Shown here piece after piece: positions 1 to 35,041 of a DNA stretch of 35,041 nucleotides. Each line of letters starts with the position of its first letter. The first letter of the stretch is position 1. The stretch is from Obrimoposthia wandeli (lineage: Eukaryota). The DNA is taken from positions 372,001 through 407,041 of the forward strand of contig CDROCS010002597.1 in the NCBI GenBank assembly GCA_977020255.1, read 5' to 3'. A model generated the notes under the pieces. It was not told the origin of the DNA. It ran no database searches and saw only the letters and a program-made list of their open reading frames with translations. The translations under genes and the position numbers were made by a program.

Positions 1-305
1 TTCTGTGGGCCCCCAGGCCCTTTTACTATTTATATTATCCCCAAGGATGATAATTCTTCAGAATTATCCATAAATACTGTAATAGAAAATAGAAAAAGAA
101 AAATAACACAATAATCAAAAATTTTTAAATAAAACCGTTTAAGTAACAAAAAATGTTAGTACTATTATGTAAATCTAAATTAATTAGAAATAGAATAAAA
201 ATTTGATATATATATTTTTAAAGACGATTTAATGAAATAATATTAAAATAAAATCACCAGGAAACGCATCCTGAAATTTAATAATGGTTATTTTTAGATA
301 TAAAA

Positions 306-702
306 ATGAACAGATTGGCAAAAACTTGTAAAAAATGCAAAAAATTAGAGAAAAAGATTCGAGATGTTTCCAGACAGCATGACGACTACTATATAAAGAT
401 CACAACTCAAAATGAATCACTGAAACAGTTAATAAAACAAAGTGTGGAAAAAAAAATTGAATAATGATTTAACAATTGACGAACTAGAAGGGAGATTGGC
501 ACATAGTTTTGGCAGAATAGACAATTTAATACAACAAACTTTAAGTCAACGATCAACTATAGCCTCATTAAGAAGACAAATGATGACCTATAGCGACATG
601 ATAAACTTTTATTTGACCATTAATCCTACTATCCCAACTAATACAACACTTGATGATGGATATGACTCGGATATAAACATTGGTGAACAAAATTCTGGTT
701 AA
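306..702 (+). CDS. Putative ~131-aa coiled-coil protein, split by a 1-nt frameshift at an A9 run
   Basis: ATG at 306 reads MNRLAKTCKKCKKLEKKIRDVSRQHDDYYIKITTQNESLKQLIKQSVEKK. Removing one A from the A9 run (448-456) joins it to ORF 442-702 (LNNDLTIDELEGRLAHSFGRIDNLIQQTL...). Helical, heptad-like composition; no family recognised. Confidence 0.45.
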
Positions 703-869
703 ACTATAATCATACATCCTTCTTTTGTACAAATTGTATAACTTTTGTTAATAAGTTTATTTTCATGACAAATCCCACATACTGCATGGATAAGACTGAT
801 ATTTTTATAACTTTAAGACTGTGAAATAATTATATTATTTTATTCAACTAACAAATCTATTAAAGCAGA

Positions 870-2039
870 ATGGATAACAATCACCTGGATACGACTCCAG
901 ACCAGCTCACTCGGTCAGATCAAACAAAAAGCACAGCAAAGATAGAAAGAGGAAAAACGGAAAATATGCCAGAAAGGTGGTTTTTAGCAAAATTCTTGTA
1001 TCAAAACATGCGTCAGTTTAGCAGTGCATACTTTAGAAACAACGGAGGAAGAAAAATGTTTTCAAATCAAACATTTCTTCCTAATAAGTTAAAAATTACC
1101 ACAGAAGAAAGAACTAGCGCACTTATTTTTACCAATGAAAAAAGACCAACCCATATGGCTCTCAGTGAAATATTCCCCAACATTAATTGTGAAAAAATAG
1201 ATATTCACGTGGCACTAGGAGTAGCCCATTTAAAAACCAAATCAGATAAGACATTAAATTTTCTGATGATAGGAAATCACACCTACACCTTACAAGCAGC
1301 TCAATTAGAAAATCAATATAGCATAAAAATAGGAAGAGGACCAAATCTATTATTTATAGAAAACATAAGAAAAGCAGAAGAACCTCAACAAATAACCCTT
1401 TTTGAATTAAAAAACGCACAGAAACCAGCAATTTTATTCCTCGATTGCGAAATGGTGATATCAGTAGATAAACAGCCAGTTTTAGCAAGTGTTTCTATTA
1501 TAAATTACATAGGTAACGTAATTATAGATACACTGTGCGTAACTAGAGACAGAGTAAGAAATTACGTTACTAGAATAACTGGACTGTCAGATAGAAAGTT
1601 ACAAGGATGTAGAGATGCTGATGAAGTAATTGAGGAAGTAAAAAACATTGTGTATGGTAACATCATCGTAGGTGTGGGACTAACAAACGATTTAAAAGCT
1701 TTACGCCTACAGAAATGGATGTTATTCAACATTGTTGATTTAGGAATATCCAAAAGCATAAAATCAGAACTAAATCACAATCACCCAAATATTGGACTCG
1801 CCAACATGGTGCGGAAATACTTAAATATAGAAACACAAAAAGGAGTCCACACTAGCATGGAAGATGCAAATCACACCCGAAAAATTTTCATAATGAAGGA
1901 GGAAATGTTGATTAGAGAGTTTGATTTGACCGAGGTGATGAATCCACCATCTTGCGAGAACAACCCCAGTTCATCCTTCTCGCATAAGACCGGAAACTCG
2001 GAGTCCGGTACACAAAACTCCCTGATTTTGTTGGATTAA
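870..2039 (+). CDS. Intronless DEDDh 3'-5' exonuclease (REX4/ISG20-like domain) with an unrecognised ~185-aa N-terminal region
   Basis: 389-aa ORF. ExoI LFLDCEMV (D192, E194), VRNYVTRITGL, ExoII GVGLTNDL (D274) and ExoIII HTSMEDA (H327, D332) are all present. AATAAA at 2120-2125. Confidence 0.85.
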   Translation: MDNNHLDTTPDQLTRSDQTKSTAKIERGKTENMPERWFLAKFLYQNMRQFSSAYFRNNGGRKMFSNQTFLPNKLKITTEERTSALIFTNEKRPTHMALSEIFPNINCEKIDIHVALGVAHLKTKSDKTLNFLMIGNHTYTLQAAQLENQYSIKIGRGPNLLFIENIRKAEEPQQITLFELKNAQKPAILFLDCEMVISVDKQPVLASVSIINYIGNVIIDTLCVTRDRVRNYVTRITGLSDRKLQGCRDADEVIEEVKNIVYGNIIVGVGLTNDLKALRLQKWMLFNIVDLGISKSIKSELNHNHPNIGLANMVRKYLNIETQKGVHTSMEDANHTRKIFIMKEEMLIREFDLTEVMNPPSCENNPSSSFSHKTGNSESGTQNSLILLD

Positions 2040-2431
2040 GGTAGTATTGTTATTATTTTATTTCTGTTTTCATTTTTGTCTAAATTTTTAACGATATTTA
2101 ACCAGACATGATTGTGATTAATAAAACATTGATCAGTTGTAACATACAAACAACACTAGGTAACAATAGGAACAAGACAAAATAGTTTAACTAATAATTA
2201 AGATATAAATTATGATTCTGAGGACAGAGACTTTTATGACCCGGAGGATTGTTGGGAAAATATATTAAATAATTGTTTTAAAAAAGAAAAAGAAAAATAT
2301 AAAATTTTTAAAGAAATAAAAGAAAAAAGAGAATTAATTAATTAAAAATTAATTGGGAACTTTCCTTAATTAGGGAAAAGTTCCGATTTTTAGAATTGTG
2401 CACTTTGGCATTTTAGTCAATAGAGTGATCA

Positions 2432-2483
2432 ATCTCCGACGGGAAAAAAGCCCGTTTCGCCCTGCCGGGCTCATCAGGGAGAT
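2432..2483 (-). ncRNA. Type I hammerhead ribozyme (HHR1), intact core
   Basis: Minus strand: AUCUCC-CUGAUGA-GCCC(GGCA)GGGC-GAAA-CGGG(CUUUUUU)CCCG-UC-GGAGAU. It has a 6-bp stem I, 4-bp stem II, stem III and a GUC triplet. Predicted cleavage between 2438 and 2437. Confidence 0.9.
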
Positions 2484-2488
2484 GGCGT

Positions 2489-3042
2489 GTTATCTCTAAC
2501 TTCGCGGTGGATTCCGCGAAGCCAGAGATAACAATAATAAAGCCAGGGAAAAGATTTCCCTTTCATGTGCCGACGAATATCGTCGACATGTGGTGTTAGT
2601 GTGCGCAAGTGCACCATTCACACACACACACACTCACTCAACATTAACACATCACTCAACTCACTCATTCACTCTCACTACTCACTCAATCGCTCACACA
2701 ATCCCTTGCTCACTCACTCCCTACTCACCTATTCTTTGTGCATGTGTGTGTTTAATTTGGCATTTTACACCTGCCCAGAATTTTGAATGACGGTGAAATT
2801 TCCCGGCTGCACATGTGTGTGTGTGTGCAGAGCCGGGAAATGCCAGTTTCCTCTACCCAGGTCTTTTCCTAATGACGGTGAAATTTCCCGGCTGCACATG
2901 TGTGTGTGTGCAGAGCCGGGAAATGCCAGTTCTGGTGGTGTTTCGGGCAGGCAACGAGGATTGATAACTGCCGGTTTTCCCACCTGCCCATCTGCTTATA
3001 TCGAATCTATGCAGTCGAATTGCAGATATATAGACGGGCAGG
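2489..3042. other. GC-rich cluster of nested hairpins, including a 63/61-bp direct repeat
   Basis: Paired arms: GTTATCTCT 2489/AGAGATAAC 2532 enclosing CTTCGCGG/CCGCGAAG; GGGAAA/TTTCCC 2546-2560; CATGT-CGACGA/TCGTCG-ACATG 2564-2590; CCTGCCC 2770/GGGCAGG 2951; CCTGCCC-ATCTGC 2983/GCAGAT-GGGCAGG 3042. Direct repeats at 2786-2848 and 2871-2931 each fold via ATTTCCCGGCT/AGCCGGGAAAT. Confidence 0.75.
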
Positions 3043-3130
3043 AAAGAAATTGCTATATAATTTTACAATTGATAGAAACAAAAATTATTATGAAATTACC
3101 AAAAACACGAAACTATTATATTTAATTCAG

Positions 3131-3826
3131 ACAATTTTTGGGATCGTGATTTTGAATTGGAACACAAGTTGTGATTTTATGAAAATTTAAATATTATTGA
3201 AACTACAATTTTTGGGATCGTGATTTTGAATTGGAACACAAGTTGTGATTTTATGAAAATTTAAATATTATTGAAACTACAATTTTTGGGATCGTGATTT
3301 TGAATTGGAACACAAGTTGTGATTTTATGAAAATTTAAATATTATTGAAACTACAATTTTTGGGATCGTGATTTTGAATTGGAACACAAGTTGTGATTTT
3401 ATGAAAATTTAAATATTATTGAAACTACAATTTTTGGGATCGTGATTTTGAATTGGAACACAAGTTGTGATTTTATGAAAATTTAAATATTATTGAAACT
3501 ACAATTTTTGGGATCGTGATTTTGAATTGGAACACAAGTTGTGATTTTATGAAAATTTAAATATTATTGAAACTACAATTTTTGGGATCGTGATTTTGAA
3601 TTGGAACACAAGTTGTGATTTTATGAAAATTTAAATATTATTGAAACTACAATTTTTGGGATCGTGATTTTGAATGGGAACACAAGTTGTGATTTTATGA
3701 AAATTTAAATATTATTGAAACTACAATTTTTGGGATCGTGACTTTGAATTGGAACACAAGTTGTGATTTTATGAAAATTTAAATATTATTGAAACTACAA
3801 TTTTTGGGATCGTGATTTTTGAATTG
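3131..3826. repeat. 74-bp tandem satellite, ~9.4 near-identical units
   Basis: GGGATC recurs at 3140, 3214, 3288, 3362, 3436, 3510, 3584, 3658, 3732 and 3806, an exact 74-bp period. The unit contains the CACAA-G-TTGTG palindrome. Confidence 0.95.
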
Positions 3827-4183
3827 AATAAAAGTTATTTGCAAGTTATTGGACTTTTAACACAAAGACCAAAATAGAAAACCTCATCTCTGTAAAATCT
3901 AAGAGTAAAAATCAATATTTTCGTGCACACAAGATATGTATTAAAGATAAGATAGCCAAATGATGAGTTCTTCATGAATGCATGTGTCGAGATTAACAAT
4001 AGAATTGTGAACTCTGGATTTTTAAACATTTAATTATTAAAAAATTGTAATTATAATTAATTTTAAAATTTGATGTTTAATTATAGAATTGATGGAGAGA
4101 TTGTTAATTGGGATGTTGTTAATTAGAATTTAATAAATGCACTTTGATATTTTGTTTTTTTTATAAAAAAGAAAATTTTAACT

Positions 4184-4227
4184 CCAGACCGGCTAAGCCA
4201 GTTTCGCCTGGCTAGGCTCGTCAGTGA
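4184..4227 (-). ncRNA. Type I hammerhead ribozyme (HHR2), intact core, short stem I
   Basis: Minus strand: UCA-CUGACGA-GCCU(AGCC)AGGC-GAAA-CUGGC(UUA)GCCGG-UC-UGG, with a GUC triplet. Predicted cleavage between 4187 and 4186. Confidence 0.85.
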
Positions 4228-5710
4228 TGGGGCGAATATATAATGTATTTATCCAGAAATTCTGCCCAAGGAGGCAGAACAGCCAGAACAAGCGGTTTGG
4301 AGGACCGTTTCACTCTCCTCCGATATTCTCTTTTCACTGTGGCCTTCCTCTAACTGTAGTAGGGACAATCTTCTTTGCCAGTTCTACACAGCATCCCACT
4401 GGCGCCACTGTCGCTTCAATTCTGATGCTGCTACTTATCACAGCGGCAACAACAACAGCAGGCCGACATTTTTGTGTATATGCTCAGATACATGCAGAAT
4501 ACACCACACACGCACAATCTGTAACACAATGCATAATATCTTCCTATTCTCACTCCTCAACATCCTCTTACTGTCCTTCCTCTCTCAGACACAATTTTGT
4601 GTCATTGTGCCTGTATTTGGTAAATTGTATGCGTGTGTATATGGATCTCTGTGCTACATCGACAACATTGACTAGCAACAAACTTTGCTTGTCGGTTTAT
4701 CTCTCTCCTCAATTCCTCAACAGCTCGGACCAGCAATGCAATAACAGCAGTATCTATCTTTCTGGTTCAATCTAATTGTAACAATTTCAGATTCCATGTC
4801 ACAATTCTGTCTCTCCCTGTCTTATCTCTCATCTTTTGTGTGTGTGGAGAGGATGCATTCTGACAAACCTTTGATATGTGTTCGTCCATTACCGTCTGTT
4901 GCCACGCGGATGGAGGGGTTAACCATAGCCAGATGAAATTATGAGCCAAAACAGACAATTTCCCCCTCTCTTGGTCTTGGCAGCCAACAGCGCTACTTTC
5001 TTCACCAGTCCGTTCACAACAGCTTGAGTGCAGCCTTGGTACCAATAAAATTCTCTCTAATCGATATAAAACAGCAGTCATGCTGTTAATATCTTTCCAA
5101 ATTTGCCCAATAAATATAATTTATCAAGCATTATTTTTGAAATTAACTGTTATTTTATTCAACTATTTGAAACATCAAATGCTCATTTCTATTATTGTTA
5201 GATTAAAGGAAAGCTAAATTAAAACTAAATAATACATTTATATATAACGAATATTTAACCTCAAAATATTGAAAGTTAAAAATAAAATAATTAAAGAATA
5301 TGTTTTTTAAATAAATTAGAATAAGTTCTTTTAGATAAAGTGAGATCTTGGAGAGGTCTTTAAAATGTGTATAAAAATAAAAGTGTAAAAACACAGAAGA
5401 AAATTGAGACATAGAATTAAGGCAATCATTAAGAAAACGAGAAAGATTCTATAATCAGAATTCACAGTCCATTCGCGGAAGAAGAATCGTGACTGCTACA
5501 TTCCGATCAGCGACATCACGAACGACAACAATTTCTTACGATAACGCAGAAAATGCAATTAAAGCAGAAACGTCAAGTCTAACTGAAGGACTACAGAGAA
5601 GTCAATTTTACTTGAAGAAAAGCGTGAATACCAGGATATCGCATCAAAATGACAACGAAAATCGGTGAGGGAGAACGAAATTAAAACACATTTAAACTTA
5701 ATTGTTTTAA

Positions 5711-9752: not shown

Positions 9753-9980
9753 CTAAACATCACCTTTCTTTGACAAATAATAAGAATTCATACACGTTTT
9801 AAATGATTTCAACTGATCTTGACATTTTCGCCAATCTCGATTATCACCCATACATTCCATTACAGCATAATGCATTTCAAGACATCCGGATTTCTTTATT
9901 GCTTCTTCAACCATATCTGTTTCTTCATCATCATCTTTAGGTTTCGGAACTGTAAAATTATGTCCTTTCATTTCTGACAT
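9753..9980 (-). CDS. COA4: Cytochrome c oxidase assembly factor 4 (CHCHD8), 75 aa
   Basis: MSEMKGHNFTVPKPKDDDEETDMVEEAIKKSGCLEMHYAVMECMGDNRDWRKCQDQLKSFKTCM: twin CX9C motifs plus DDDEE-x-D, SGC...H-x-AV-x-ECM and DWRxCQ, typical of COA4. ATG at 9980, TAG at 9753. Confidence 0.9.
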   Translation of the reverse strand: MSEMKGHNFTVPKPKDDDEETDMVEEAIKKSGCLEMHYAVMECMGDNRDWRKCQDQLKSFKTCMNSYYLSKKGDV

Positions 9981-10930
9981 AGTGAAAATGAAAATATTAA
10001 TCAACTTTTAATTGACTAACAACTTAATATTTTATGTGGAACAATCACATGAAATTATAATAAAGTTTATCATATATTTACAGTAGTTGTAATTGCAATA
10101 TAACTATAAAATCATTTAAAATTTTTAAATAGTCTTTAGGTTATTTTAATTATGTGAAAAATTTAATATTTAAACTAAGACTAGAAAAAATTATGCCCAA
10201 AAGTCGTAATTGGATGATAACGACAAAAGCAGGATTTTTAAATTATGGATAAAAAACCTTTCGTACAGAAAATTTGAAAAAAATTCCCTACTATTTTCAT
10301 GATTTTTTATTCAATGTTCACTGGGATAATATGTCTAATAGGAACACAAGCATGAATTATATGCTAGAACAGAAATGTCTATGACTCTATAAAGATTGAT
10401 TAAAACAATCACATACAGGCATGATTAATAGAAAATAGTTCCTCGCCTTTATGAAATCCATAAATGAATGAGAATTAAATTTAATAATAGAGCACAAAAT
10501 TGGTGATACTAATTTTTGTCTTATAATAATTTTGACGTATTAAAATTATTGACATGATCTATGGATTGATCCTACTATTTTCTCCTGTTCAAAATTCAAC
10601 TCCGCTCTTATGAGCTATCACCCCGAATGACTTCAGTCTTTTGGTATTAGAAGATAATACAATTAATTATAAAAATTCAAAGTGATTATTAAATGAAGCT
10701 CATTTAAATAATTCTTCAATGTTAAACTTCTTAAACAGAAACAATGTCAAAGAACTCTTGAATATATTAATATTTTTCAATTTCTTAGTCAAAGGAGCAA
10801 CTGATTAGATATTTTTGCAAAAAATTTAAGTAAATGATATTCTGAACTTTTCACAAAAATGTATTGGGAATCTTAGCAAAACGAATCTATGCTGTAAAAC
10901 CCAAATATAATTTAATTGGTGGGTTCAAAG

Positions 10931-13050: not shown

Positions 13051-13139
13051 CCTTGCACTTAAAACTCATTTAATCACTTTTTTAACTTCAGGTTTAATAA
13101 TTTACATTTTAAAATTAATCTTCGAGAAACTGGTTTCTT

Positions 13140-13373
13140 TGATTGTTTATAGATGATAATTTCTGATGGATTGAATATATCGGTTCTAAATCTTATGTCA
13201 TCAGGACAATCTTGAGTAAAATCAATAAAAATGTATCCATGAGGAATAATAGTTGCATCTTGAAATGAATTAATTAGGAAATTTATATTATTCAGGTAAT
13301 TTGGACTTGAAACAAAATCAGCACCCGTCTGAATACGTGAATTCTTGAAGAGAACAAAGTAATGTACATTTAA
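13140..13373 (-). pseudogene. Maverick/Polinton packaging ATPase, C-terminal remnant
   Basis: LNVHYFVLFKNSR...FQDATIIPHGYIFIDFTQDCPDDIRFRTDIF matches the LNxxYxxLFKNPRD...DATxxPHGYLxIDxxQxTPxxxRxRTNIF pattern. Confidence 0.8.
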
Positions 13374-15203
13374 ATTACGAGTTCTATGATTATCTCCTTG
13401 ATGAAATAGATTTGTGATAACTTCTGATAACTTGTGATAACTTCTTTTATCTTCACTTCATCAATAGTTTCTTCTCTTCTAATCGCTGTTGGTGGTGATG
13501 TTGTTGGTAATGTTGCTGCTGCTGATGATGTTGCCACTGATGTAATTTTCTCCATTTTTCAGTTCAGAGTTGAAGGTTTTACTCTTATATACTAATCGAG
13601 GTTTGATTTCATTAGAGCATCAGTTTCATCATAACTGCATGATTTAATTGGAGTATTATTCAAATTTTTAATTTTACTTAACATCTCATGTAAATGTAGT
13701 TGATGATGTAACCTAAATATAGAGTTAAATTAACTACTAATAAAAATGACTTATTATTATTTTTCTTAATTAAAGCACCGAGAATAACTCATGCAAGATC
13801 TTGTAATGCATCCTGCACCTCTTTACAATCAATAACTTCATCCATTTATGATAAAGCAAATAAAATATTGTTTATAACTCAGAAAACAAAGAAAAATCTA
13901 TTTTAATAAGTGTTGAATTTCACCAGTATTACTGATTAAGTATGGAATTAAATAAGTAGTATTGATAAAGTATTGAATTAAATTGAGAGTTAATCCATTC
14001 TAGAGTGTCACCCTATTGTTGTGTAACGTTGTATTAATAATTTTTAAAATAAATATAGTTAAAATAAAGTCGCAAGACAAAATTCCATTTTAATATTGAC
14101 TACCCCTTGCATAATATTCGGATTAACTAACCTATAGGTCAGCTGAGTATTAACTCACGTGGCGGTGATCCAAACCCTGGTGTACTCAGAGGATAACTAA
14201 GCCCCGATGTTAAATTATTTGATTAGGATAAAATTTGTCTCATGTTCGTTAGATATCATAGCAAATGGTAAAACTGTTATATGAAAAAACGGAATCCAAA
14301 TTGTTATTTTCTAAAAATGTTCAATATCCAAAATTAAATTCGTGTCTACCAAAAATTGTGTCATTAACAATACTGTCTTTACTGCAGACATATCTGCGAA
14401 TATTCACAATGCCAACTACTGCAAACAGGGACACACATAGGGACATGATAACGTCCAACAATGATAGCAGCAGAACACTAGCACAGTTTTAGTATACATT
14501 TACGATGATATTAGAGATTAAATTGTGCTGACACAGAACGAGAAGAAAACAATGGGAAATAGCACAGAAGAGATTGTCAGGTTGAGAAATTTGACGTATC
14601 TCGATAGTGAAAAATACTGCGGCAACACCGCTATGAGATGGAGAAAAGATAGAAGGCTGCACATGGATGTGGTCTGTACGGAGGAATATGTTCGTTAGGT
14701 CATAGAGGGAGAGTGTTATACCATGGAGAAAAGAAACAGCTCCACCTGATGGAGAAATACAGGGAAAGAGGCGGCTTTAGGAGAGATATAATCAGTTGAC
14801 CACTGCCAGCTAAAAACGCTGTCCAACTGATCCGTAACTCATGTACCGAGAATGTATACCACCGCGAAATTGTTGTTGCTGTTGGGTATAGAAGGAAATC
14901 GATTGAAACACCGATTGGCAGGAGAGATGGAACTGCATTAGGCACAACACAAACGACTGCAGACAAGTGGATCACATATGTCTCTCCATGTACCGGCTCG
15001 ACTAGCGGAAGCAGCAGACTGTCATCCACAGCCGACCGATTTGGATGACAGAGGAAGATTGTGAGAAGGACGGTGGAGGAGGACGATGTAGAAGAAACCG
15101 GGACCACTAGAGATTGGTTTGTGAGGCTGCTGTTGCTGGGCGGAAAAGTATTTGTTGTCAAACCACTTTATCTTGTTAGATTTATCTCTGACATTATGTG
15201 CCC

Positions 15204-15254
15204 CCTCCCTGACGAGCCTGGCAAGCCAAAACGGGGGTTTTCCCCCATCAGAGG
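15204..15254 (+). ncRNA. Degenerate hammerhead ribozyme (HHR3), probably inactive
   Basis: CCUCC-CUGACGA-GCCU(GGCA)AGCC-AAAA-CGGGGG(UUUU)CCCCC-AUC-AGAGG. Lesions: stem II mismatch (15226), G12>A (15228), C-A mismatch in stem III (15247) and a stem I mismatch. Flanks match HHR2 (ACATTAT..GCCCC upstream; GAG(G)TTAAAATT downstream). Confidence 0.7.
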
Positions 15255-15343
15255 TTAAAATTGTTTTCTTCCCTGATTGTGGTCACCTCAGTCAAATATC
15301 AATTTAAATGATTTGACATAAATAAATTTTAAATCCCAACACT

Positions 15344-16144: not shown

Positions 16145-19100
16145 ATGAGTGTAGAGAATGCAGGTTGGAAAATCAATCCTGGATACAGTACAAACGTACT
16201 GATAAATAATTGGTTTGAAGAACGATTACAAGTGAGAGTGTTTTAGTTGATAATTATATATTTTATTGTGTGTTCAGTATGACAAAGAGCTGCAGAATCA
16301 CTCTACCACCTATCGTACTAGTTTCAATCGCGGTTCGAATCCCTTTCCTGATGTCATAAATCGTCGACGGAATTGGCTGAGAAGTGACGGAGTGGGCCCA
16401 GACTTTTTGTTGAAGCACCACGGTCACGTGTATGAAGATTCGCGAATCACCTGGTACGACCAGGACTTCAACAAGCGGGAGCGACGAGGCAGGAATATTC
16501 TGCCTCCTCTACGCCAGTGGGATAGCAGCACTATGCACTGGATCCCAGAGAAATCAGACTTTCCCATTTACGGTGCGAGCAATCGATATTTCATCATCAC
16601 ATTCACCTTCATAATTGGGAAACGCAGTTTAGACATCGATCCCAACTTGTAGGTCAAATTTCATGAGTGTGGACGGATATAGAAAATATATTTTTCTGTT
16701 GCAGAAATGTTGAAACCCAGGCGGCGTCAGCTTTAAGTTGAAATATATCCCAAATTTCTGGAGATATGTAAATGAAACTTTGCATATTTAATATAGACAT
16801 CGATCAAAACTTGCACCCTAAATTACGTCATCTTTTCCAAACGGGATTCAGTCGGGATTCAACAAAAACAATTTTTCACTGAGTAATAAAATTCTGATGG
16901 AACTGAAATTTGGCAAGCAACTTGTGATCGATGTCTGGCCTCCATTTCCAAAGTTTCGTTCAGAAATATTTATTCCTTCTGGAGATATTCTCCCGCAAAG
17001 CCGGTTTGACCCGCATTTATACATTTCTGAAAGTACATTATTAAGGGAATTCATAAATAATAAACCATCAAATTATCTATGTGATCACGGAGTCTTTTGG
17101 AGTGATTTTCAAAAAGGTTAAAAATGATTTTATCGCTTTGACCATTACCGACAAATAATACTTCGTTCATTGTTAATATTTTATTTAAATAACATTTTCA
17201 AAATATCTTGTTCTCGGTATGATTTAAGAATCGTTTTATTTACATTTTCCTTTCTTAGCTATTTAGGATTATTATTTTTTCAACAAATTATAGCTTCATT
17301 TTACATGCATTTTGAAAGTTGTTTTAATTAATAGTAAACATAACAACATTTTTAAACTCATTTTAAACAATTTATTTACGCAACAATTTATCAAACATGG
17401 ATCGGAAAATTATTTTGTTTTTGTTTTTGTTACTGGTAGTCAATAATTTTGTTTTGTTTGTTAGATATTTAGCTTCAGAAATGTATAAATGCTGGTCAAA
17501 CCGGCTTTGCGGGAGAATATCTGCGGAGGAATAAATATTTTTGAATGAAACTTTGGAAATGGTGGCCAGGCATCGATCACAAGTTGCTTGCCAAATTTCA
17601 GTTCTATCAGAATTTTATTACTCAGTGAAAAATTGTTTTTGTTGAATCCCGGCTGAATCCCAGATGGAAAAGATGACGTCCAAAATTTGGGTTTAGACTG
17701 ATTGTTTATCTCAGTAAAATTAACTTGAAAATATGATATGAAAGTTTGGGCCACGGTGAAAAATCAGATGAAACCGGAGCTGTGTAGTCACTACCCAAAA
17801 TCCGACTCCAACTCCAAGAAAACTCCGAATCCACAGTCGCTTCCACTTTTAAGCTACATAATCAAATGTCCTCCTATACATACATACGCTACTCTACTGT
17901 ATATTTAGAGCAATTTGAGAATTTGCCTAATAATAGTACACATCTCCACTTCATTGAAGCAGCAATACCATCTACAATTGGCCCCTTTCTTTGGGACAGT
18001 TGAAATTTATGGTTCTTCGACTCTTTCAAGAAAATTCCTGGTGTTAAATCATCAGATTGAAATATTTTAGTCTGCAATTGAGTGATGAATCAGCTCTGCC
18101 AATTCAGACCTCTTTGTCCATTGAGGCTCGGCCATATCCACAGGAAAATGATTCGGGCCCAGCAAGCGCTGACTCATTAAGTAGGTACTTCTCCAGCGTA
18201 AAGTTTGATCCGTCATTGAGCTCTTCCCAGCGCCTCTTTTAACAAATAATCCAGTTTTGGTGTTCTGGCAGCGGGACTACATTTCTTGTCAATCAGATCT
18301 GTAAAATAAAAATAGTGACGAAAAATCATCTCTCACATTCTGTAGTTTTCAGGGTTTCTTCGGTTGTATACTAATATATTTTGCAAAGATGGAATGGCTC
18401 TTAAACGGTAATTTAAACACACCTTTCGAAATTGCGCCTGCTAGTTGTTACGGTCTTATTATGGATGTCACATTATAGTTGCATTACTTTTGTGAAGTTT
18501 TTATATTTTAGGGTCGGAGTTTATTCGGCGCTGGGCAAGGGTTATGACCGAGAATTTTTTCTCACACAGAAACTTTTTATCTGTAGTAATTTTCAAACAA
18601 TTAATTTAATTAACAAAATGAATAGGACATAGGGAAATATACGATAAGATTATAAGTAAAGAATACAAATACATCCGTGGCTATTACCAGAATCAAGTAA
18701 AAATATAAATGAGTGCAAATGATCAAAATTGTCTATCTACATTTTCCCTTTCTTCGCGGCTCAGCTTTCAAACATGAACAAACTCTCAGAGGACATTTGC
18801 AGTAACGTTGTCTTTGGCAGGAGTCCCTTCTCCAAGGCTATATGATCCGGTTCTTGTTCAACTTGAATTTTGCTGCAGCGTTCCAATAGCACAATTCGAT
18901 ACATCGCCTGCGGTCACAGCTCCCATAACATTTGCTAATATCACTCAATATCCCCAGTATCACACCGGTCACTGTTCACACTGCGCTGGTTCCCCCAGGA
19001 GCATAATTTGAGATTTGCAAAAATAGGCGCTGAGGGAGATTTACACTTTTAGGGAACTTAAAAATTAAATGGTAAACTGAACTCTTTAACTGGAAAACTC

Positions 19101-22100
19101 CTTCATAACGTCTTACTTTTCTTTCTATCCTCCTCTTCAATCCATAGAGTCCTTTTGAAAAGGAAATGATCAAGACGACTCGACAAATCAGAGTACAAAA
19201 GCTCGTCTTTGAAACGTTGCTGTCACGCACCAATGACCTAAGTTTCAGTGCCATATCACCAATACCTCTTTCAACACATCGCTGACTTTGCAGCTGTCTG
19301 AAATGTCCCTTAATCCGGATGAAGTTTGTAAAATTGATGCCAACTTCTGGAAATGTTAGAAAATGATATCAGACCTTAAAAGTCTTTCTAGTATCGTTCA
19401 GCATTTCAAAACAGCAATAATTATATTCGATTTCGTATTACAAAGTCCAAGGAAACTTGCAATTATCTCTACCATTTTAATTTTTTAGAAAAATATTTAG
19501 AGACCTTATATTTTTATTTTCTGAATAGCAAAGTCTTCAGCTGCTTCTTGAATTTTTCAATATTGTTTTAGTTTTTATTATGTTATTTGAGTTTTTTGAC
19601 TAATCTGCTGTTATTATCGTTGCTTCTAAAATGCTTATACATGTTTGCTGCACCAGGCTCGAGAAGATTTTAAAAATATTTGAGATTTTGTGAGAGAATA
19701 CATTTTTTGATAAAAAGTAATTTATTGAAATGAATTCTGACATTGATCGGTAGCCAATAAAGCTTCATCAAATTTTCACTTCTGCTAGCACTTTTCTTTA
19801 GTTAATTTAAAATCACAATATTAGACTGTTGTAACACTAAAAGTAAGAATACGGACTCGAATATATTAATCTAACTCCCAAATCCAATATGTCGTCAATT
19901 CAGATCTGCATGTTCTTCGCTTTACTACTTATTTGGCGACATCAAGTCGTGAGAAATAAAGGTGTTCAATACTGTTTGACGCGCCTTGATTTGGATTGAA
20001 TGTCAGTTCAAAAAGTGTGGTGGCAAATGTGAGTAAAGTTTTGTCGACGAATAACCGAGTGCATGAAGGAACGGATTCTTATGTCGATGACATCGTGGTC
20101 AAGGAGGTTCGAAACCTTTTAGATGAATACGGTTTTGAATCAAAGCAAGCGGAACCATTGTCTGGAGTACTCGTGCTTGGGTTGCGTGTGTTTCTAGAAG
20201 CTAACCTTATGTCATGGATAATGGACAATATGTTGACGGGCTTTGAAAGCGCAATTACTTGCAGAACACATTTTTCCTTGTGTGGTATGTTGTTAGGTCA
20301 TTTCCCTGACACAGGATGGCTGAGGCCGGAAACAAGTTACATAAAACGATTGACAAATGGAATGAAGTGGAATAATGTTGTTGATGCAAATGTAATGGTG
20401 TTAGTAGAAGAGATGTGGGCGCGTGTTATAAAGAATGATCCGTACATGGAATATGGTCATTTTCAAATACATGCGCAGGGACTGTTTGGTGTGATCCGAG
20501 TTGTCTGGCGATCGGTGTTGTGGTCGACATCGGAGGGGATGTCGTGTAAGATTTCAATTAGTTGCGGAAAGTTAATGACGGGTCACATATTAACCCTGCC
20601 GAGTTGGAGTCCGTCATTAAAGGATTGAATTGTGCCATCAAGTGGGGTTTGTCTCAAATCACTGTGATGACAGATTCTTCAACTATGTACGGGTGGTTGA
20701 ATGTTAAAACAACTGGTCCATATATAAAGTGAAAACTCATGGTTTAGGAGAAGCTTTGGCACATAGACGAATGTCCATGGCGAAAGATTTGATAAGTGAA
20801 TGTCGTCCTGGTGTAGTCGTGTGGTTTGTTAAGTCAGCACAAAATGAAGCAGATGAACTTACCCATGTTCCACATAGTTGGTTAGCAAAGCGCTGCATTG
20901 CAAACATAGCGCGTAGCGGGACATCAAACGCGTGAAGCCCATACGCAAGTTGAATCATTTTAGTATTTATAAGACGTTGTTTGTGGTGAACCACCAATAT
21001 CCCGACTTAAAAGTAATGCGTGGGGAAATTAAATCCATTGCACAGAACATTGAAAGATGCTTGCATGTCGATCCTTCTCAGTTAAATGGAAACATGGAGA
21101 GTTGGCTGTAGAAAGAAGTTGGAGTCGTTTGGCATGTGACGTGGCACATTATCTTGAGAAACGTCACCTGACAATTATTGACTGTGGTCCTAGCTGTTTA
21201 TGTGTGAGGAAGTTGTTAAAAGACGAAACGAAGTTGGAAGTGTCCAGTGCAATGGCGGATGTTTTCAGGGAGCATGGACTACCGGATGAGCTGTTATTCG
21301 ATAATGGTGCAACTCTCCGTTCCCATATGTTTGGCGAATTGTGTAGCAAAATGAAGGTGAAGGTTTATTTATCGCAGTACATATCGACCGTCGGGAAATG
21401 GCATTGTGGAGTGGGTACACCGTACTGTGAAGCAGATGGCGGCTAGAAGGGATGTGGATGTACGAGACATGGCTTAATGGTTAAAAATAACCCCGCGTGA
21501 TGAAACAAAAATTGAATCAGTACCCGTGAATGTGTTGTACAAGTATGAGTGGCGGTATCTGAATGTTGTTGGCATTGCATTCTCTGTTGCTGCAACATCG
21601 AATTAATTTGTCGTTGGGTCCAAGGTTTTCGTTAAACCACCAGGGATGCGATGTATAACACATTGGCCGAAAGGAACCGTCACTGGAAGTGAACGGCATC
21701 TCGAGGCACGTGTCTGGTTTGAGGTTGATTCCTGATACAATGGATGAGGTGGATCGAAACGTTGAGACGACTCATGCGGAGATATTTGACGAAGAGGTTC
21801 AACCTGATGAAGTGATGATCGGGGAGGAAAGCGGCGCTGGGGTGACAGATGCAAACAAAGTTCCCGGCGCGAGCGGTAGACCTGCTAGGCAAACGAGACG
21901 ACCAGCGTTTCTAACAGATTACATCGAATAATGATCTTGAGATCATGTGTGGCTTTTCTATTTATTTAAACAAATCGCCAATCACAACTGTGACATCTAA
22001 AAGTAACAATTATACATTTTGTAATTTATGTATGTAATTTTACTTAAAACTTTGATTTATATTATATTTTTAGATTTATTACGATGAAACAGCAATCAAC

Positions 22101-25420: not shown

Positions 25421-26983
25421 GAATACAATTCTAATTGTTAGGGGCTTTGTTAAATATTTTTAAAAATGATTTAATTTATAAGTTGGAATATTAAACTAAA
25501 AGAATTCTGAAAATCAAGTCTTGGTGTAATAATGTGATAGCGTAGATCTCAGCAGTAAGATTTATTTTATTTGTTGATAAATATTTTCCTTTAAACATTT
25601 GACAATTGATTGTAATGTTTTCATTGATTTCATGACCAATGTTCTTTATTTTAGATTTTAAATTTATAATAATTTTCGTGACATGTACAAAACTTCTTTT
25701 TTTAAATGGTTTGTCTATTTCTTAGACCAAAATAATAAGGCCTCAGTTTTATTTTCACCAATCTTCAATTATATTGATTTCATCTATATACATATTTCCA
25801 TCATAGAATCTATTAAAAATATATATTGACAACATTATTTAAAATAAATTACTGTAGCCAACATTTAACTACTTCCTGATCAATGTAACACACTGTAAAT
25901 GAAGACATAAACATTAAGTGAACGACAAGTTAAACAACTTTGGATTTAGCACTAGTGACATTAAAAGTAAAGTGTTTTTCTTTGATCAATATATTAATTG
26001 AAATCAGCCAAATGGAAGTCACGACATTTTTACAAACTCAATAAGTTTTTGTATAACCCATAAGATCCCCTAATATATTGAAAATATTGTTGATAATTAA
26101 TTATATACTGAAGAATTCTCTAACATTGCTACATGATTTTGATGATAATATCACACATTTTCAAGTGCAAATCTTTTGATAAGGAAAACCTTTTGAAAAT
26201 TCATTAGTAACGTAAAGTGTACTTTTTCAAACTAGAAATAAGAAAATAGAACAACATGCAAAAAGTATTGTGTGCTGTACTCGTTTTATATTGGCCGTTT
26301 TAAGTGTCCAACACATTATAGCAGAAAGTCGTCTTGTTTTGTATTTTTAGAAAAGCACACTTTAGACTACTATATATGGAATTTTGTAGTCGGGAGTACC
26401 CAATTTCTGTGCTTGAGTCGAAACATATCTGAAACAAGGGCCCGCAAGTAGAAATCAGGATTAGTGCTCTAATCTATTTTTGATATTGGAAACACTTCAT
26501 CACTCCTATGAGCTTAGAAATACTGATATGGTTACCGAGTTATAATTTTGGTTTAACGACTATTGTTTTGAGATTGAATCAATGTGCATGAAACCATTTA
26601 AACCTCAATGTTATTCAAGTTAATTATAAGTGGAAGTACTTCAACCCATTTTTAGTACCGATCGCCGTAAAGTAGCAATCAGTCTCTTAATGTCCTATTA
26701 AATTGTTCTACTACCGTGGCCTTAGTAAAGGGATGTCTGTCTTTCAGGACAAAGTCTTCCGATCACTCATCCTGAGTAGGTGGATGAGTCCGGTCTAATC
26801 CACACCCCTGTCCTTTAAAACCGTGCATGTGTGTGGAGTGGAATTTTGTGTAGGTGTGTGGAGTGAAATTTTGCTCCACACACATGCACGGTTTTAAAAG
26901 ACAGGGGGGTCCCAAAAAAAGGCTCGGGATGGGTGTATATCATAGACTTCCTTGGGTGTTGGGTGTTGGAGGGTGGGTGTAAA

Positions 26984-27399
26984 TCGATGGGTGTTGGGTG
27001 AAAGTCGATGGGTGTTGGGTGAAAGTCGATGGGTGTTGGGTGAAAGTCGATGGGTGTTGGGTGATGGGTGAAAGTCGATGGGTGTTGGGTGAAAGTCGAT
27101 GGGTGTTGGGTGAAAGTCGTTGGGTGTTGGGTGAAAGTCGATGGGTGTTGGGTGAAAGTCGATGGGTGTTGGGTGAAAGTCGTTGGGTGTTGGGTGAAAG
27201 TCAATGGGTGTTGGGTGAAAGTCGGTGGGTGTTGGGTGAAAGTCGATGGGTGTTGGGTGAAAGTCGATGGGTGATGGGTGAAAGTCGGTGGGTGTTGGGT
27301 GAAAGTCTATGGGTGATGGGTGAAAGTCGATGGGTGATGAGTGAAAGTCTGTGGGGGATGGGTGAAAGTCTGTGGGTGTTGGGTGAAAGTCGTTGGGTG
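26984..27399 (+). repeat. 21-bp G-rich minisatellite (GATGGGTGTTGGGTGAAAGTC)n, ~20 units
   Basis: Read directly from the sequence. The repetitive ORFs at 26815-27549 are translations of this array. Confidence 0.95.
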
Positions 27400-28040
27400 A
27401 GGGGTGTAAGTTGGTGGGCGTTGGGCCGGTGGTGGTTCACCACCAACACTACACCACACAACACCACATCACACCACACCACAAACAACACCACACCACA
27501 CCACACCACAAACAACACCACCCACCGAAACACTCCGCCCGCCCCATAGGGGCGGGCTTCATTCTCGCGAAAATAACTACAAAAACATGCGCTACAGTAT
27601 TTTTCTTTAACTTTACCTCTCACAACTACACATGTAGACAACCCGTGTCACACCCCAGCCCCAAACATACACCGCACACCGCCCGCCCCTTCGGGGCGGG
27701 CTTCATTCTTGATCTTTAGGCACGAAAAACATTACAAAAAATAAATGATTTGAATCAGACGCAATTTTTTGCGCCAAATTTAAAATTTTCAAAATGGCTT
27801 TAAAACAAAAAAATAAAATATTAAAATTTAAAAAGAAAAAATCTTAAAATTTTACACATAATTTTTTACAATAATTTTTATAGTTTAAAAATATAATTTT
27901 ACACAGAACTTTTATACTTTAGAATTAAAATTTTAAACTTAGAAAAAGACAAAGACGAATTGGATACAAATATTTATTAAACAAAAGAGAAAAATTAGGT
28001 ACAATAAATTTGTGACATAAATTCAAACATACAAAAACAA

Positions 28041-28439
28041 TTATTCAAGTGAAAAAACATCTGGATATCTGTGATGTCCGTAGACAACTGACCGGTTTTT
28101 CTCTACCCATTTTCTCTTATCGTCATTGCTATTCAATGCGATCTTACTCATATTTACGGTATAGAGCTGGTGATTAATTGAACTAATGCGTTGTTGTCGC
28201 ACTTGTTCACTAACCCCACTCTCATATGCAGCTAAATAATTCGCATGGCGTAGCGCAGTCTGCTTAAGGCTAATTCCCTTTGCTCTCATCTGGGACTTTC
28301 CGTCTATAGTTTCTAAGCTATATGATTTGGGGCGTAAAAATACCCATTGCTTATATCTACATTGCTTACTCTCATCCTTAAACTTGCCTATCGCAGTATT
28401 GGCTAAAGGATGGTTTATAGAAAATTTTGATGTGTCCAT
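28041..28439 (-). pseudogene. Protein-primed B-family DNA polymerase (Maverick pPolB), C-terminal 132-aa fragment
   Basis: DTS..HPL...IGKFKDE...FLRPKSYS...RAKGI...RISSINHQLYT..KIALNSNDDKR...YGH. The catalytic N-terminal part is absent, and the frame is closed just upstream. Confidence 0.85.
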
Positions 28440-29929
28440 CTGAAATCATTGCTGACAACAGTGTAGCTTGCACGTCTACATTATGACACTTTAGAAAAAA
28501 ATTCTAATTTGGATATAAAAAGTTCGATTTTTAATCATTTTATGTTTATATTTATGGATTTTAGAATACATTTTTTCGTGTATATTTCAGAATAATGTAA
28601 ATTAAGATGCAAAGCTGAATCTTAGATCATTTATAATGCTTTTAGTTGACAAATGAATGAATTTACTGTGTAATTTTTCTGAATAATGTAAATCTCAAAG
28701 TAGAAAGTTCGATTTTCAGTCAATTTATAGATTAGAAGATAAATTTACCATGGATTTTTAGAATAATGCAAATTATAATGCAAATAATTGATCATTTTTC
28801 AATGAATTTACCCATATTTCAATAAATTTCCTTTGATTTTAGTTTAAGGACAAAATTACTTTCAGAATAAATAAGTTGTATTTCCTGACGATTCTTATGT
28901 GCCACCGCGTCAATAAAGTTTTCATGGTTTCTTATATGGTAGATGCACTAATTGGATTTCTCTTCAACATATTTAAAGTATTCCTCAGTGTAATAAAGAT
29001 ATAATTTGAAGAGATTATATAATGATCAATAATGGGGAGTTTATTACGGACAATAATACGGATAGGTAGAGAGATTACTATGATCAATTAGTCAATTTAC
29101 GATCAAGAGTATATTATTAATTTTAATCTGCATCTTTAACTAAGAATTTTATTAAATTTCAAACTGATTCATTAATTAAATCTAAAATGTTATCTACTTT
29201 CTTTTAAAAAGTTTTTATTTGTAAAAGAATCTGTAAAAGTTTTGTTACTAAAAAATGATTAGTTTACATTTCTATTTTTTGTTTCAAAGAATATTGTTTG
29301 AAGATTAGCTTATTTAAGGAAATTAATCTATGTAATAAATAAGTAATTAATTAAATTATCACTAGTAAACATCGGATATCAATATTATATTGGAACATTT
29401 TGTTTAGAAATTATTACATCAGGACTAGAAATGGATTAAATTATATTCTCTCTTTCGATTCATTTAAACCTAAAATTATTATTTTCAAGTATCATTTATT
29501 GATATAATTTATTCAATAATGTTTAGAGTATGTATTTATCTCAGTCATAATTTATTCATATTACTTGAGTCTATTGATAACTATATTCTCAAAAAATAAT
29601 TTTTCATTGATCGATATATCAAACAAGAAAATTCTTACAAAACTCTACAAGCTTATTGATTCATTGATGTTATCAATATTATGGAAACTTATTTTCAAAC
29701 ATCAACAACCAGTCGATTTATTACTTCAAATAAATTATGATCGGTCTAGTAAAGAAATTATACATAAAAGGTTCTATAAGAGAAATTAACAAGATGCATG
29801 AGATTTGTTACATTTAGATGATATATGACATGGGTGTTTATAAGGTTTAAGAATAGAAAATAATGGATAGAGTTTTACAAGAGAAACTTACGATTTGTTC
29901 AAAAGGTTCTCTAGAAGAGTAATTAATAC

Positions 29930-31915: not shown

Positions 31916-33343
31916 ATTTTGTATAATTGAATCTACTTTTATTTGTGAGTAGAAAACGTTTTTGTAATCTTAAGCTATTTATTACACATTTTTAAACCTA
32001 TGAGTTAAACAAGTAAATAGAGATAGTAAAGAATAATTTTTATTAAAGATACATACATTGTTATACCATCATCTCTTGACAATATCATAATCTTCATTAC
32101 TTCGATCCATCTTCATTACACAATCCTTCTTCTCATCAAAGCAATCACTCATCTTCATCCTTCATTATCACAATCTCTCATTCATTTTCATTATCACAAT
32201 TAATTAAAATAATCAATACATTTTTAAATATACATTTTAAAATATGTAGAGAAATATAAATATATATATTATGTATTGATTTATACATGTTCAGAGATGG
32301 AATTTAACAAGGTGTTTACAGAGGAAAATTCTTCGAGAAAAGATATTTAGTGATATTATTTAATTGTTTATCCTTTGAAGTCCAATTCCAATTGATTGAT
32401 AATGTTGTTTATGTAAATCGCTTCGTATTAGTCATATCATTGAAGGGCTCACGTTCTTCGGTTACGCGTGTGGGTCTTGTTATTGTTTCAGTTACTGGAT
32501 TAATATTTTCTCTATGATTATTTCTATTATAATCCATATTAGCATATAAATTACTACCAGAACCAATATATGTGCTTGCTCTATCTTGATTATCCATTTT
32601 CAATAAAAATCAATATCGGAATATTGTTTATAGAGATAATTTGTAATCTAAAAATAGATTTTCAAATAATATATAAGAATTAGTTTATATTAATCAGTTT
32701 ATAATAATCAGAAATGTTACTTCATAATATCAAATTTGTGAATATTAATTACAAGGGAATGGTTGTAAGCAATATTCAACACTTACCATTTCGAAGACAC
32801 ATCAGTACCGTCACAAATGTGATAGTTATACTATTATATTTTTCAAATCTGGTAATTTATTTTACATTTAAGTTTTAATATAATTAGGAACATGTCGAAT
32901 CATGGGGTGTAAAGCTGCGCTAGATGAAAGCACTCTTCCGTTCAAAATCAAAATCGAGAGAATTCAATCAATCAGTGTCAGTACTTAGTACTTAGAAAAA
33001 CCAATAAACCTGAGCAAGATGAGCAAGAGTTTGAGAGTGGAAGCAGTTTACGATCCAAAATTTTTTTCCAGGGCTACGTTATATCAAATACAATCCTCTG
33101 TGCGTGAACATTTTTTTGCGAGCGGGTAGGTGATGATACTTGGCGTTAAGATCCTAGAATATGAATATCTTGTTGAATGTATTTTATTTAATATACATCT
33201 TCAAACTTGTGTTCTTTCCTAAACAAAGATATTACTTGCAAAAAGATGCAAAGTTGCAAAAAGTTGTAATGTTACTAAAAATAGATTTCCCTTGTTTTCT
33301 GAATTATAAACAATACTCTTATAGCTTTAAATTTGTCAATAAA

Positions 33344-33994
33344 ATGGAAAAACTCGGTGAACCATCATCAGCAGCAGCAGAGAAAAATGAAGAAATTATT
33401 GAAGATACTGATAAAGAAGAAAATAAGCGATTGAATTTCTTAAATGCTCTGACTTTTAAAGAACCCGTAATAGCTAATGCTTCCAATATGGAAATGTCTC
33501 AGATGACCCACCTTTTTGATAGTTTGTTTAGAGCTAGATTTAACCAACTTAGTGTGGAAAAATTAAACAAAACCCCAATGAGCGAGATTTTAGTAAATCA
33601 ATTATATATTGGAAATTATCGTGACGGGTTTGATGAAACTGAGCTTCTAAAATCGAAATTCACACATGTAATCAATACATCTCCAGTGGATAAGATATCT
33701 TATAAGGAATTAAAGTATACATCAATCTTTGTAAATACGAAATTAGGAGAAACAATATTACAATATTATAAACAGACTAATAATATAATTAAAGAAACCA
33801 TCAAAAATGGAGGAAAGGTTCTAGTATGTGGTCATTATGGAGGTTTACATGCTGTTTGTATTGTTATTGCATTTTTATCTCTTTCAATGAGTGTTAGTTC
33901 TGCATGGAATCTTGTTAAAGCTAAACGCAGTATTGCAGCGCTTAATACAACTTTGCTTAATCAAATACATATTTTTAATCATTATCATACATAA
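33344..33994 (+). CDS. Intronless dual-specificity phosphatase-fold protein, predicted pseudophosphatase (216 aa from MEKLG)
   Basis: PMSEILVNQLYIGNY...FTHVINTS...NGGKVLVCGHYGGLHAVCIVIAFL...AWNLVKAKRS...LNTTLLNQI is the DSP fold. The HCx5R loop is replaced. The upstream 61 codons of the listed ORF look like AT-rich non-coding sequence. Confidence 0.8.
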   Translation: MEKLGEPSSAAAEKNEEIIEDTDKEENKRLNFLNALTFKEPVIANASNMEMSQMTHLFDSLFRARFNQLSVEKLNKTPMSEILVNQLYIGNYRDGFDETELLKSKFTHVINTSPVDKISYKELKYTSIFVNTKLGETILQYYKQTNNIIKETIKNGGKVLVCGHYGGLHAVCIVIAFLSLSMSVSSAWNLVKAKRSIAALNTTLLNQIHIFNHYHT

Positions 33995-34156: not shown

Positions 34157-35041
34157 AAATACTCCTCTAAACGCCTTTTAAGGTTATATTTTCTGATACC
34201 TCCTAAACACTCCTGCTAAACCCCTTCTTAACCCTTCAAATCTATAATCTTTCTTCTGAAACCTCTTGAACGCTTTTTCAATTTGTCTTTTATAATTATT
34301 TAGCTGCATATGAGAGTGGGGTTAGTGAACGAGTGCAACAACAACGCATTAGTTCAATTAATAACCAGCTCTATACCGCAAATATGAGTAAGATCGCATT
34401 GAGTAGCAATGACGATAAGAGAAAATGGGTAGAGAAAAACCGGTCAGTTGTCTACGGACATCACAGATATCCAGATGTTTTTTCACTTGAATAATTGTTT
34501 TTGTATGTTTGAATTTATATGTCACAAATTTATTGTACCTAATTTTTCTCTTTGGTTTAATAAATATTTGTATCCAATTCGTCTTTGTCTTTTCCTAAGT
34601 TTAAAATTTTAAGTCTAAAGTATAAAAATTCTGTGTAAAATTTTAATTCTAAAGTATAAAAGTTCTGTGTAAAATTATATTTTTAAACTATAAAAATTTT
34701 ATAAACAATTTTATTTTCTGTTAAAATTTTTTTTTGAATTTTTTTGAATTTTTTTTAAAAGCCATTTTGAAAATTTTAAATTTGGCACAAAAAAATGCGT
34801 CTTATTCAAATAAATAATTTTTTTGTAGTTATTTTCACGCCTGGAGATTGAGAATAAAGCAAGCCCCGAAGGGGCGGGCGTTGTTTTTGGGGCTGGGGTG
34901 TGACACGTGTCGTCTACATGTGTAGTTGCCATGGTGAGAGGTAGATGGGTAAAGTGATTGAAAAAAGTACTGTAGTTATTTTCGTGAGAATAGAGCTCGT
35001 CCCGAAGGGGCGGGCTGTGGGCGGCGGTGTGTTCGATGAGT
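34157..35041. repeat. Inverted arm: reverse complement of 30270-30413 fused to reverse complement of ~27520-28241
   Basis: 34157-34300 matches 30270-30413. From 34294 the sequence matches 28241 downward, including the last ~64 pPolB codons (34301-34494, +) and the GC hairpins at 34863 and 34995. Runs off the window end. Confidence 0.85.

Follow-up and report, generated by a model that had tools for sequence, protein, structure and literature searches.

A predicted type I hammerhead ribozyme lies antisense in both LTRs of a coding Ty3/gypsy element of Obrimoposthia wandeli

Why should a hammerhead ribozyme lie behind an exonuclease gene, on the strand opposite to it? What the numerous hammerheads of animal genomes do has long been an open question. 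In the published cases covered, as far as the accessible text describes them, the ribozyme frees or circularises the RNA of the element that carries it. The hammerhead analysed here contrasts with these cases: it is antisense, and its carrier, an LTR element present in thousands of young copies, is autonomous and enveloped. It is located in a window of 35,041 nucleotides from the A+T-rich genome of Obrimoposthia wandeli (contig CDROCS010002597.1; Table 1). The earlier note on this DNA had tied it to the exonuclease gene. Strand and distance are as given there, the ribozyme being antisense and 393 nt past the end of the open reading frame (ORF), but the motif is a feature of the LTR and is also present in the 5' LTR; it is near the exonuclease because that ORF is the last one before the 3' LTR.

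On the minus strand, from 2483 to 2432, the core is intact, i.e. CUGAUGA (2477-2471), GAAA (2458-2455) and GUC with C17 at 2438 are all present. Stem I is formed by AUCUCC (2483-2478) and GGAGAU (2437-2432), stem II by GCCC and GGGC (2470-2467 and 2462-2459) with the loop GGCA, and stem III has a 7-nt loop. The layout is that of type I, with the core CUGANGA, GAAA and UH around three stems and stem I open. All three stems are present in the minimum free energy (MFE) fold. In the fold of the fragment 2425-2545 (z -5.5) the three-way junction is joined by a 20-bp hairpin. Stem probabilities are 0.4-0.8 in four of five folding contexts, stem I reaching only about 0.13 in the context 2380-2545. 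A hammerhead scan of the window gives two matches, and 300 local shuffles give 0.03 loose matches per window, never one in which every stem reaches at least 4 bp. Thus, direct base-by-base reading, the MFE fold and the shuffle controls bear out the claim of the earlier note that the core nucleotides and all three stems are intact, and C17 at 2438 agrees with the strand and the 5'-OH end at 2437 that it had predicted. Its term "textbook hammerhead" holds for the complete type I core and stems, but not for the Rfam comparison that it had proposed: the best match, a partial one to Hammerhead_3, has 23.8 bits (E 0.73) where the gathering score is 48.5, and at E<=1 no other hammerhead model, type I included, is matched, leaving the motif outside every Rfam family. 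Altogether, the motif is almost certainly a type I hammerhead, and the element that carries it almost certainly a Ty3/gypsy element.

From its sequence the motif is predicted to self-cleave, and monomeric self-cleavage is likely, since the modelled stem III is stable. Additionally, the GCC directly 5' of the ribozyme and the GGC of loop II can pair in 96% of cells in 33 variants, without compensatory change. The same GCC/GGCA arrangement is found in several unrelated GC-rich hammerhead matches from metagenomes. Stem I-II pseudoknots are common in other hammerheads and are described as necessary for fast cleavage (PMC3088659).

Table 1. Features at the locus. Positions are those of the window, except for the 5' LTR, which lies beyond it.
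Feature	Position	Strand	Basis or remark
Type I hammerhead ribozyme	2432..2483	-	stems 6/4/5 bp; predicted cut C2438/G2437
5' GCC, predicted pseudoknot partner of loop II GGC (2466-2464)	2484..2486	-	pairing in variants
20-bp hairpin directly 5' of the ribozyme	2488..2533	-	fold of 2425-2545; some subfamilies lack the hairpin
Second hammerhead of the same lineage, more decayed, outside the element, in an apparent older related LTR	4184..4227	-	
Third hammerhead relic of the same lineage, core broken (CAAA for GAAA)	15199..15262	+	
End of accessory ORF, no assigned function	1..111	+	gag, fusion glycoprotein and pol further upstream (L022)
Small accessory ORF, 88 aa, possibly coiled-coil	436..702	+	SlyX match sub-threshold
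Accessory ORF, 391 aa stop to stop	864..2039	+	N-terminal half without assignment, then DEDDh 3'-5' exonuclease
Short purine run in polypurine-tract position	2243..2249	+	precedes 3' LTR
3' LTR, 1613 nt, TGTT...AACA	2250..3862	+	direct-repeat comparison
74-bp tandem repeat in LTR, 9.4 copies, then AATAAA 36 nt from LTR end	3131..3826	+	
4-bp target-site duplication CAAA	3863..3866	+	same CAAA directly before 5' LTR
5' LTR, 1156 nt	G000:C2597:361287-362442 (L021 7287-8442)	+	direct-repeat comparison

The element is 14,576 bp long and the ribozyme is antisense to all of its genes. It occupies nucleotides 183-234 of the 3' LTR, and an identical ribozyme is located in the 5' LTR, 12,974 bp upstream. 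Both LTRs start with TGTTGG and finish with TTAACA, with six substitutions over 1156 aligned nt. The primer site after the 5' LTR is complementary to the 3' end of a genomic tRNA-Trp. The plus strand carries, in this order, a gag-like ORF, a fusion glycoprotein, an aspartyl protease (PR), RNase H (RH), an integrase (IN), two unassigned ORFs, a small ORF and the exonuclease. PR, RH and IN have Pfam matches in that order, and the fusion glycoprotein between gag and PR is of the Monjiviricetes type (PF24664 in three pieces, E 6e-29 to 2e-10). Gag has no Pfam match and is named from its position and from C-x2-C-x4-H-x4-C-like motifs. TG...CA direct LTRs with a target duplication, a tRNA primer-binding site (PBS), a purine tract and this domain order are the features of Metaviridae.

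In the copy at the locus the env and pol frames are broken, which may reflect decay or assembly indels, and the reverse transcriptase (RT) core lies in broken short frames; an RT-RH-IN relative, P0003, matches the family with its residues 2-631. The nearest pol relatives are five proteins with 48-51% identity. Other pol matches in the genome have open frames of up to 2547 aa, which exceeds pol alone and fits a gag-env-pol polyprotein. Although the two LTRs differ by just six substitutions, the 74-bp array of the 5' LTR is about six units shorter than that of the 3' LTR, and unequal LTR lengths are also found in other elements of the lineage. Elsewhere in the genome, at G000:C5734:143176-151119 (L164), the tRNA that serves as the element's primer, tRNA-Trp, forms a tandem array of more than 30 units with a 207-bp period.

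The product of the last ORF is, by sequence, a DEDDh exonuclease of the ISG20/REX4/SDN1-like type, with predicted activity. PF00929 matches with 31 bits (cut-off 24), the closest solved structures are ISG20, ISG20L2 and SDN1, and the DEDDh motifs are kept as DCE, D and H...EDA (ExoI D-x-E, ExoII D, ExoIII H-x(4)-D). A word-based homolog search returned no homolog of the exonuclease; a full HMMER scan gave two near-full-length relatives, P0105 and P0106, with 31-35% identity. Between subfamilies the exonuclease is about 40% identical versus about 90% for RH-IN. This fast divergence may be that of a protein in a conflict, and module exchange is another explanation.

The ribozyme is widespread in the genome. 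Its core pattern has 6,202 matches in 1.35 Gb and the reversed control has 0. A 241-nt query around the motif gave 40 scored matches with 99-100% identity in its own genome, several of them same-strand pairs about 13 kb apart, one of which includes the locus. Among the first 30 of the 6,202 loci the match lies 115-224 nt inside an LTR start in 28, and the remaining two have, by eye, a variant LTR start. A sample chosen independently of the ribozyme gives the same picture: a pol protein located 70 places in the genome, and at the first 40 of them the stretch expected to hold the 3' LTR was read; an LTR start was present in 37. All 37 contain the antisense motif, 116-227 nt inside the LTR, and 34 of them pass the core and stem checks. 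Moreover, in nine of nine additional hammerhead pairs the ribozymes are antisense and enclose gag and exonuclease (eight full elements, one internally deleted). Both ends were present in 11 of the 13 elements whose ends were examined, with a 4-bp duplication in 10 of these 11. The LTRs of elements with both ends differ by 0-7 substitutions, and therefore the spread is recent. A search with a pol relative yielded only this lineage among the six of 70 matches that were compared.

Outside this genome, the ribozyme pattern has 0 matches in viral contigs and matches 34 metagenome stretches (GC 0.45-0.71). None of these 34 matches gag, env, RH-IN or the exonuclease in tblastn and they are thus regarded as unrelated hammerheads. 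A separate hammerhead family with shorter stems (81 + 176 matches) was set aside, as its members, among the matches listed, mostly look like decayed copies.

Several derivatives of the lineage were encountered. About 200 nt to the right of the element begins an older, related LTR, whose hammerhead is decayed (4070-4330); this stretch has a 99% identical copy at G000:C2343, perhaps an allele or a duplication. At G000:C46:6215-12948 (L077) a 6.7-kb internally deleted derivative has lost env and pol and keeps both ribozymes, part of gag, one accessory ORF and the exonuclease; a second hammerhead pair of the same spacing is found at C46:30313-37050. Five copies of the hammerhead pattern with a spacing of about 2.65 kb at G000:C1071:123305-133916 possibly result from tandem amplification of an LTR-containing unit.

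As the copies are young, intactness of the ribozyme alone is to be expected. Other features suggest more than that. The searches gave 88 distinct variants, 65 of them from this genome, and 33 of these 65 were aligned; the alignment leaves out the metagenome matches and most matches of a search built for stem II mismatches. In the 33 variants 96.8% of cells are paired (slid controls, 22-51%). Double changes occur in 7 of 18 pairs, among them five of the six pairs of stem I, which was fixed by no search pattern; the rows are related, so that these counts reflect a handful of independent subfamily events. In 500 shuffles the paired fraction and the covariation score were never reached, and the number of pairs with double changes was reached in 32. 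The stems covary between subfamilies whose remaining LTR sequence is unalignable. Moreover, wobbles favour the antisense strand, with 21 G-U cells versus 5 A-C cells. In the 28 pairs that can be formed from eight LTRs the ribozyme has a mean identity of 81%, the preceding 60 nt 70% and the sequence that follows 49-52%. Thus, the ribozyme appears to be kept by selection, judging from these substitutions, on a strand that the element uses neither for coding nor for priming.

The same LTRs also differ in their composition. Elements whose interiors are about 98% identical, and whose LTRs agree throughout the first 600 nt, are unrelated in the 3' halves of the LTRs and the starts of the leaders (window 2850-3862 and G000:C2597:362442-363017 compared with L023-L034). 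Hence, a module of promoter, R, U5 and leader seems to be swapped between subfamilies, the ribozyme travelling with the coding module.

Which RNA, then, is the ribozyme likely to cut? Being on the opposite strand, it cannot process the sense genomic RNA. Element-end processing, which the earlier note had proposed, is thus right in that the motif is part of the LTR, but the genomic RNA is not what could be processed. We speculate, with a probability of roughly 0.45, that the ribozyme cuts antisense transcripts off their capped 5' part and thereby blunts silencing by piRNAs or dsRNA. Such transcripts could stem from divergent firing of the LTR promoter or from host read-through, e.g. within an intron or a piRNA cluster. 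Judging from its position, the ribozyme would lie in U3, left of the LTR promoter, and this place near the left end of the LTR would allow it to catch divergent and read-through antisense RNA alike. The cut would separate the element-complementary RNA from the capped 5' portion and leave a 5'-OH end. PIWI loading requires a 5' phosphate. A 5'-OH RNA may therefore be poorly suited to normal maturation and to loading as piRNA, which would finally result in fewer antisense piRNAs or less dsRNA against the element. In a planarian, transposon piRNAs are described as mostly antisense, with LTR elements as the main SMEDWI-2 targets (PMC8532177); the link to planarians is made through the likeness of the element to Burro. 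A cleaving ribozyme predicts a sharp break in antisense RNA at one nucleotide in every LTR.

The adjoining ISG20/SDN1-like exonuclease, which evolves fast, would suit the role of a second component of anti-silencing. In such a two-part counter-silencing kit the LTR ribozyme would decapitate antisense transcripts entering the provirus and the exonuclease would clear small or cleaved RNAs; this combination is a tentative proposal, possible rather than probable. If it were true, insertion of the element into a piRNA cluster would no longer immunise the host, and neither an autonomous LTR retroelement with a hammerhead nor a ribozyme directed against piRNA defence would have been known before.

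The main rival to anti-silencing, and a serious one, is an antisense RNA of unit length that could be circularised. Cutting of antisense RNA at both LTRs would release a 12,974-nt monomer, with 5'-OH and cyclic-phosphate ends, that RtcB could circularise, as in retrozymes, and that could act as copy-number regulator or as an intermediate of the element itself. Two identical ribozymes in direct repeat agree with this scheme, the stable stem III and the likely pseudoknot suit monomeric cleavage, and RtcB is reported to circularise hammerhead-cut retrozyme monomers (PMC7229834). In human cells, according to the accessible text, ribozyme cleavage leaves a stable 5'-OH downstream product and does not terminate Pol II (PMC6938672; PMC2702688). 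Therefore, the cut may stabilise the antisense RNA, which favours the antisense monomer; torpedo termination by the ribozyme is contradicted by the same work (PMC6938672). However, retrozyme units are non-coding and 0.17-1 kb long, whereas the antisense unit here would have 13 kb and no correctly oriented primer site, as a PBS is found only on the strand opposite to the ribozyme (4 of 30; same strand, 0 of 30). Moreover, host silencing should profit from a stable antisense RNA of the full element. On balance, we consider an antisense monomer unlikely.

Less probable still is a local role, in which the ribozyme would trim a short LTR-internal antisense RNA that acts on the LTR promoter, or would shield host neighbours from capped antisense RNA of the 5' LTR. 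In favour of it, the 20-bp hairpin directly 5' of the ribozyme contains two G-U pairs on the minus strand, which are A-C mismatches on the plus strand, and in 12 of 12 LTRs the sequence past the cut is A/U-rich and contains palindromes. However, the hairpin and the upstream LTR are wholly different between subfamilies, and the 12 LTRs have no conserved antisense TATA-like motif or ORF. An LTR-encoded peptide was likewise ruled out, as no ORF on either strand is common to the 12 LTRs.

A neutral passenger, i.e. a hammerhead captured from a Penelope element or a retrozyme and having no function in the LTR, would also appear intact in young copies, and animal repeats often contain type I hammerheads (PMC3088659, PMC7229834). 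Nevertheless, the double changes in stem I, the strand-biased wobbles and the retention of the ribozyme beside LTR sequence whose identity has fallen to background make this reading very improbable. Finally, dedicated antisense control of the exonuclease gene, as the earlier note had considered, is hardly credible: a 5'-OH product from the 3' LTR would indeed enter the exonuclease ORF first, but in 5' LTRs, and at LTR starts beside unrelated DNA throughout the genome, this motif faces host sequence, and no mark of an RNA end is found beyond the exonuclease ORF.

The anatomy of the element differs from that of known ribozyme carriers. Plant LTR retrozymes share with it a hammerhead in each LTR, a Ty3/gypsy-type PBS and polypurine tract (PPT) (PMC4918200) and a 4-bp target duplication (PMC6765202, 10.64898/2026.07.22.740005). 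However, as described in the accessible text, they are non-coding, about 1-1.5 kb long, use a tRNA-Met primer and have a type III ribozyme on the accumulating strand (PMC4918200), whereas the element is coding and, with 14.6 kb, ten times larger, uses a tRNA-Trp primer and has a type I ribozyme on the strand opposite to genes, PBS and PPT. As it contains gag, env, pol and accessory ORFs, it is not a small, non-coding, non-autonomous LTR retrozyme. The presence of an LTR hammerhead in a coding gypsy element bears on the origin of plant LTR retrozymes.

Planarian Burro/GYPSM1 resembles the element in having a mononegavirus-like fusion glycoprotein between gag and protease, accessory ORFs and thousands of copies, but Burro exceeds 30 kb and carries BIR, BCL2, MATH, ankyrin and dUTPase as cargo (PMC6431247), none of which was matched in 12 ORF pieces of the element. 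The accessible account of Burro mentions neither ribozyme nor exonuclease (PMC6431247). Bdelloid Juno/Vesta elements also have a 3'-5' DEDD exonuclease as accessory ORF after pol, but their ORF3 is of the DEDDy/DEED type and that of the element DEDDh and ISG20-like (PMC5408684); the words hammerhead and ribozyme are absent from the main text of that report. By the features compared, the element thus belongs neither to Burro (length, cargo) nor to Juno/Vesta (exonuclease type).

Type I hammerheads in a terminal repeat are also known from Penelope-like elements, Terminons and animal non-LTR retrozymes, and Terminons additionally carry DEDD exonucleases; these groups have Penelope-like (PLE) reverse transcriptases and pseudo-LTRs or tandem repeats in the available descriptions (PMC6765202, PMC6431247, PMC7229834). 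In contrast, the element has true LTRs, gypsy PR, RH and IN, a PBS, a PPT and a target duplication; integrase, RNase H, aspartyl protease and true LTRs rule out a Penelope or Terminon context. Anakin is a BEL/Pao-type element. Like the element described here it is an LTR element with an envelope gene of the same broad virus class, and its description, as accessible, mentions no ribozyme. The literature covered, including the available text of PMC6765202, PMC10886601, PMC12440569, PMC6431247 and 10.64898/2026.07.22.740005, contains no hammerhead in an autonomous LTR element, and supplementary lists could include the family. We found no published description of the arrangement seen here, i.e. 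of a hammerhead antisense in both LTRs of a coding gypsy element.

The remainder of the window contains host genes and other repeats. A small CHCH-domain protein is encoded at 9753-10007 (-) and CFAP107, with a short predicted first intron, at 16146-16575 (+). A glutaredoxin encoded nearby matches proteins of various animals, which point to no single taxon. Two of four sequencing runs cross a predicted host-gene intron unspliced and thus look like DNA; the other two gave no aligned reads. Fragments of an unrelated retrotransposon (DUF7047, a weak integrase match) are located at 19990-21931. The ORF pieces 13074-13457 and 28041-28445 resemble the ends of a Polinton-type ATPase and DNA polymerase B, a likeness to which Pfam adds no support for these two pieces. 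At 26802-26910 a palindrome with 45-bp arms adjoins a 21-bp tandem array of about 21 copies (26974-27425); Rfam miRNA matches at 26.8 kb are below threshold and were rejected, the palindrome being their source. Long inverted repeats (27520-28241 and 34294-35032) enclose a dual-specificity phosphatase ORF at 33158-33994.
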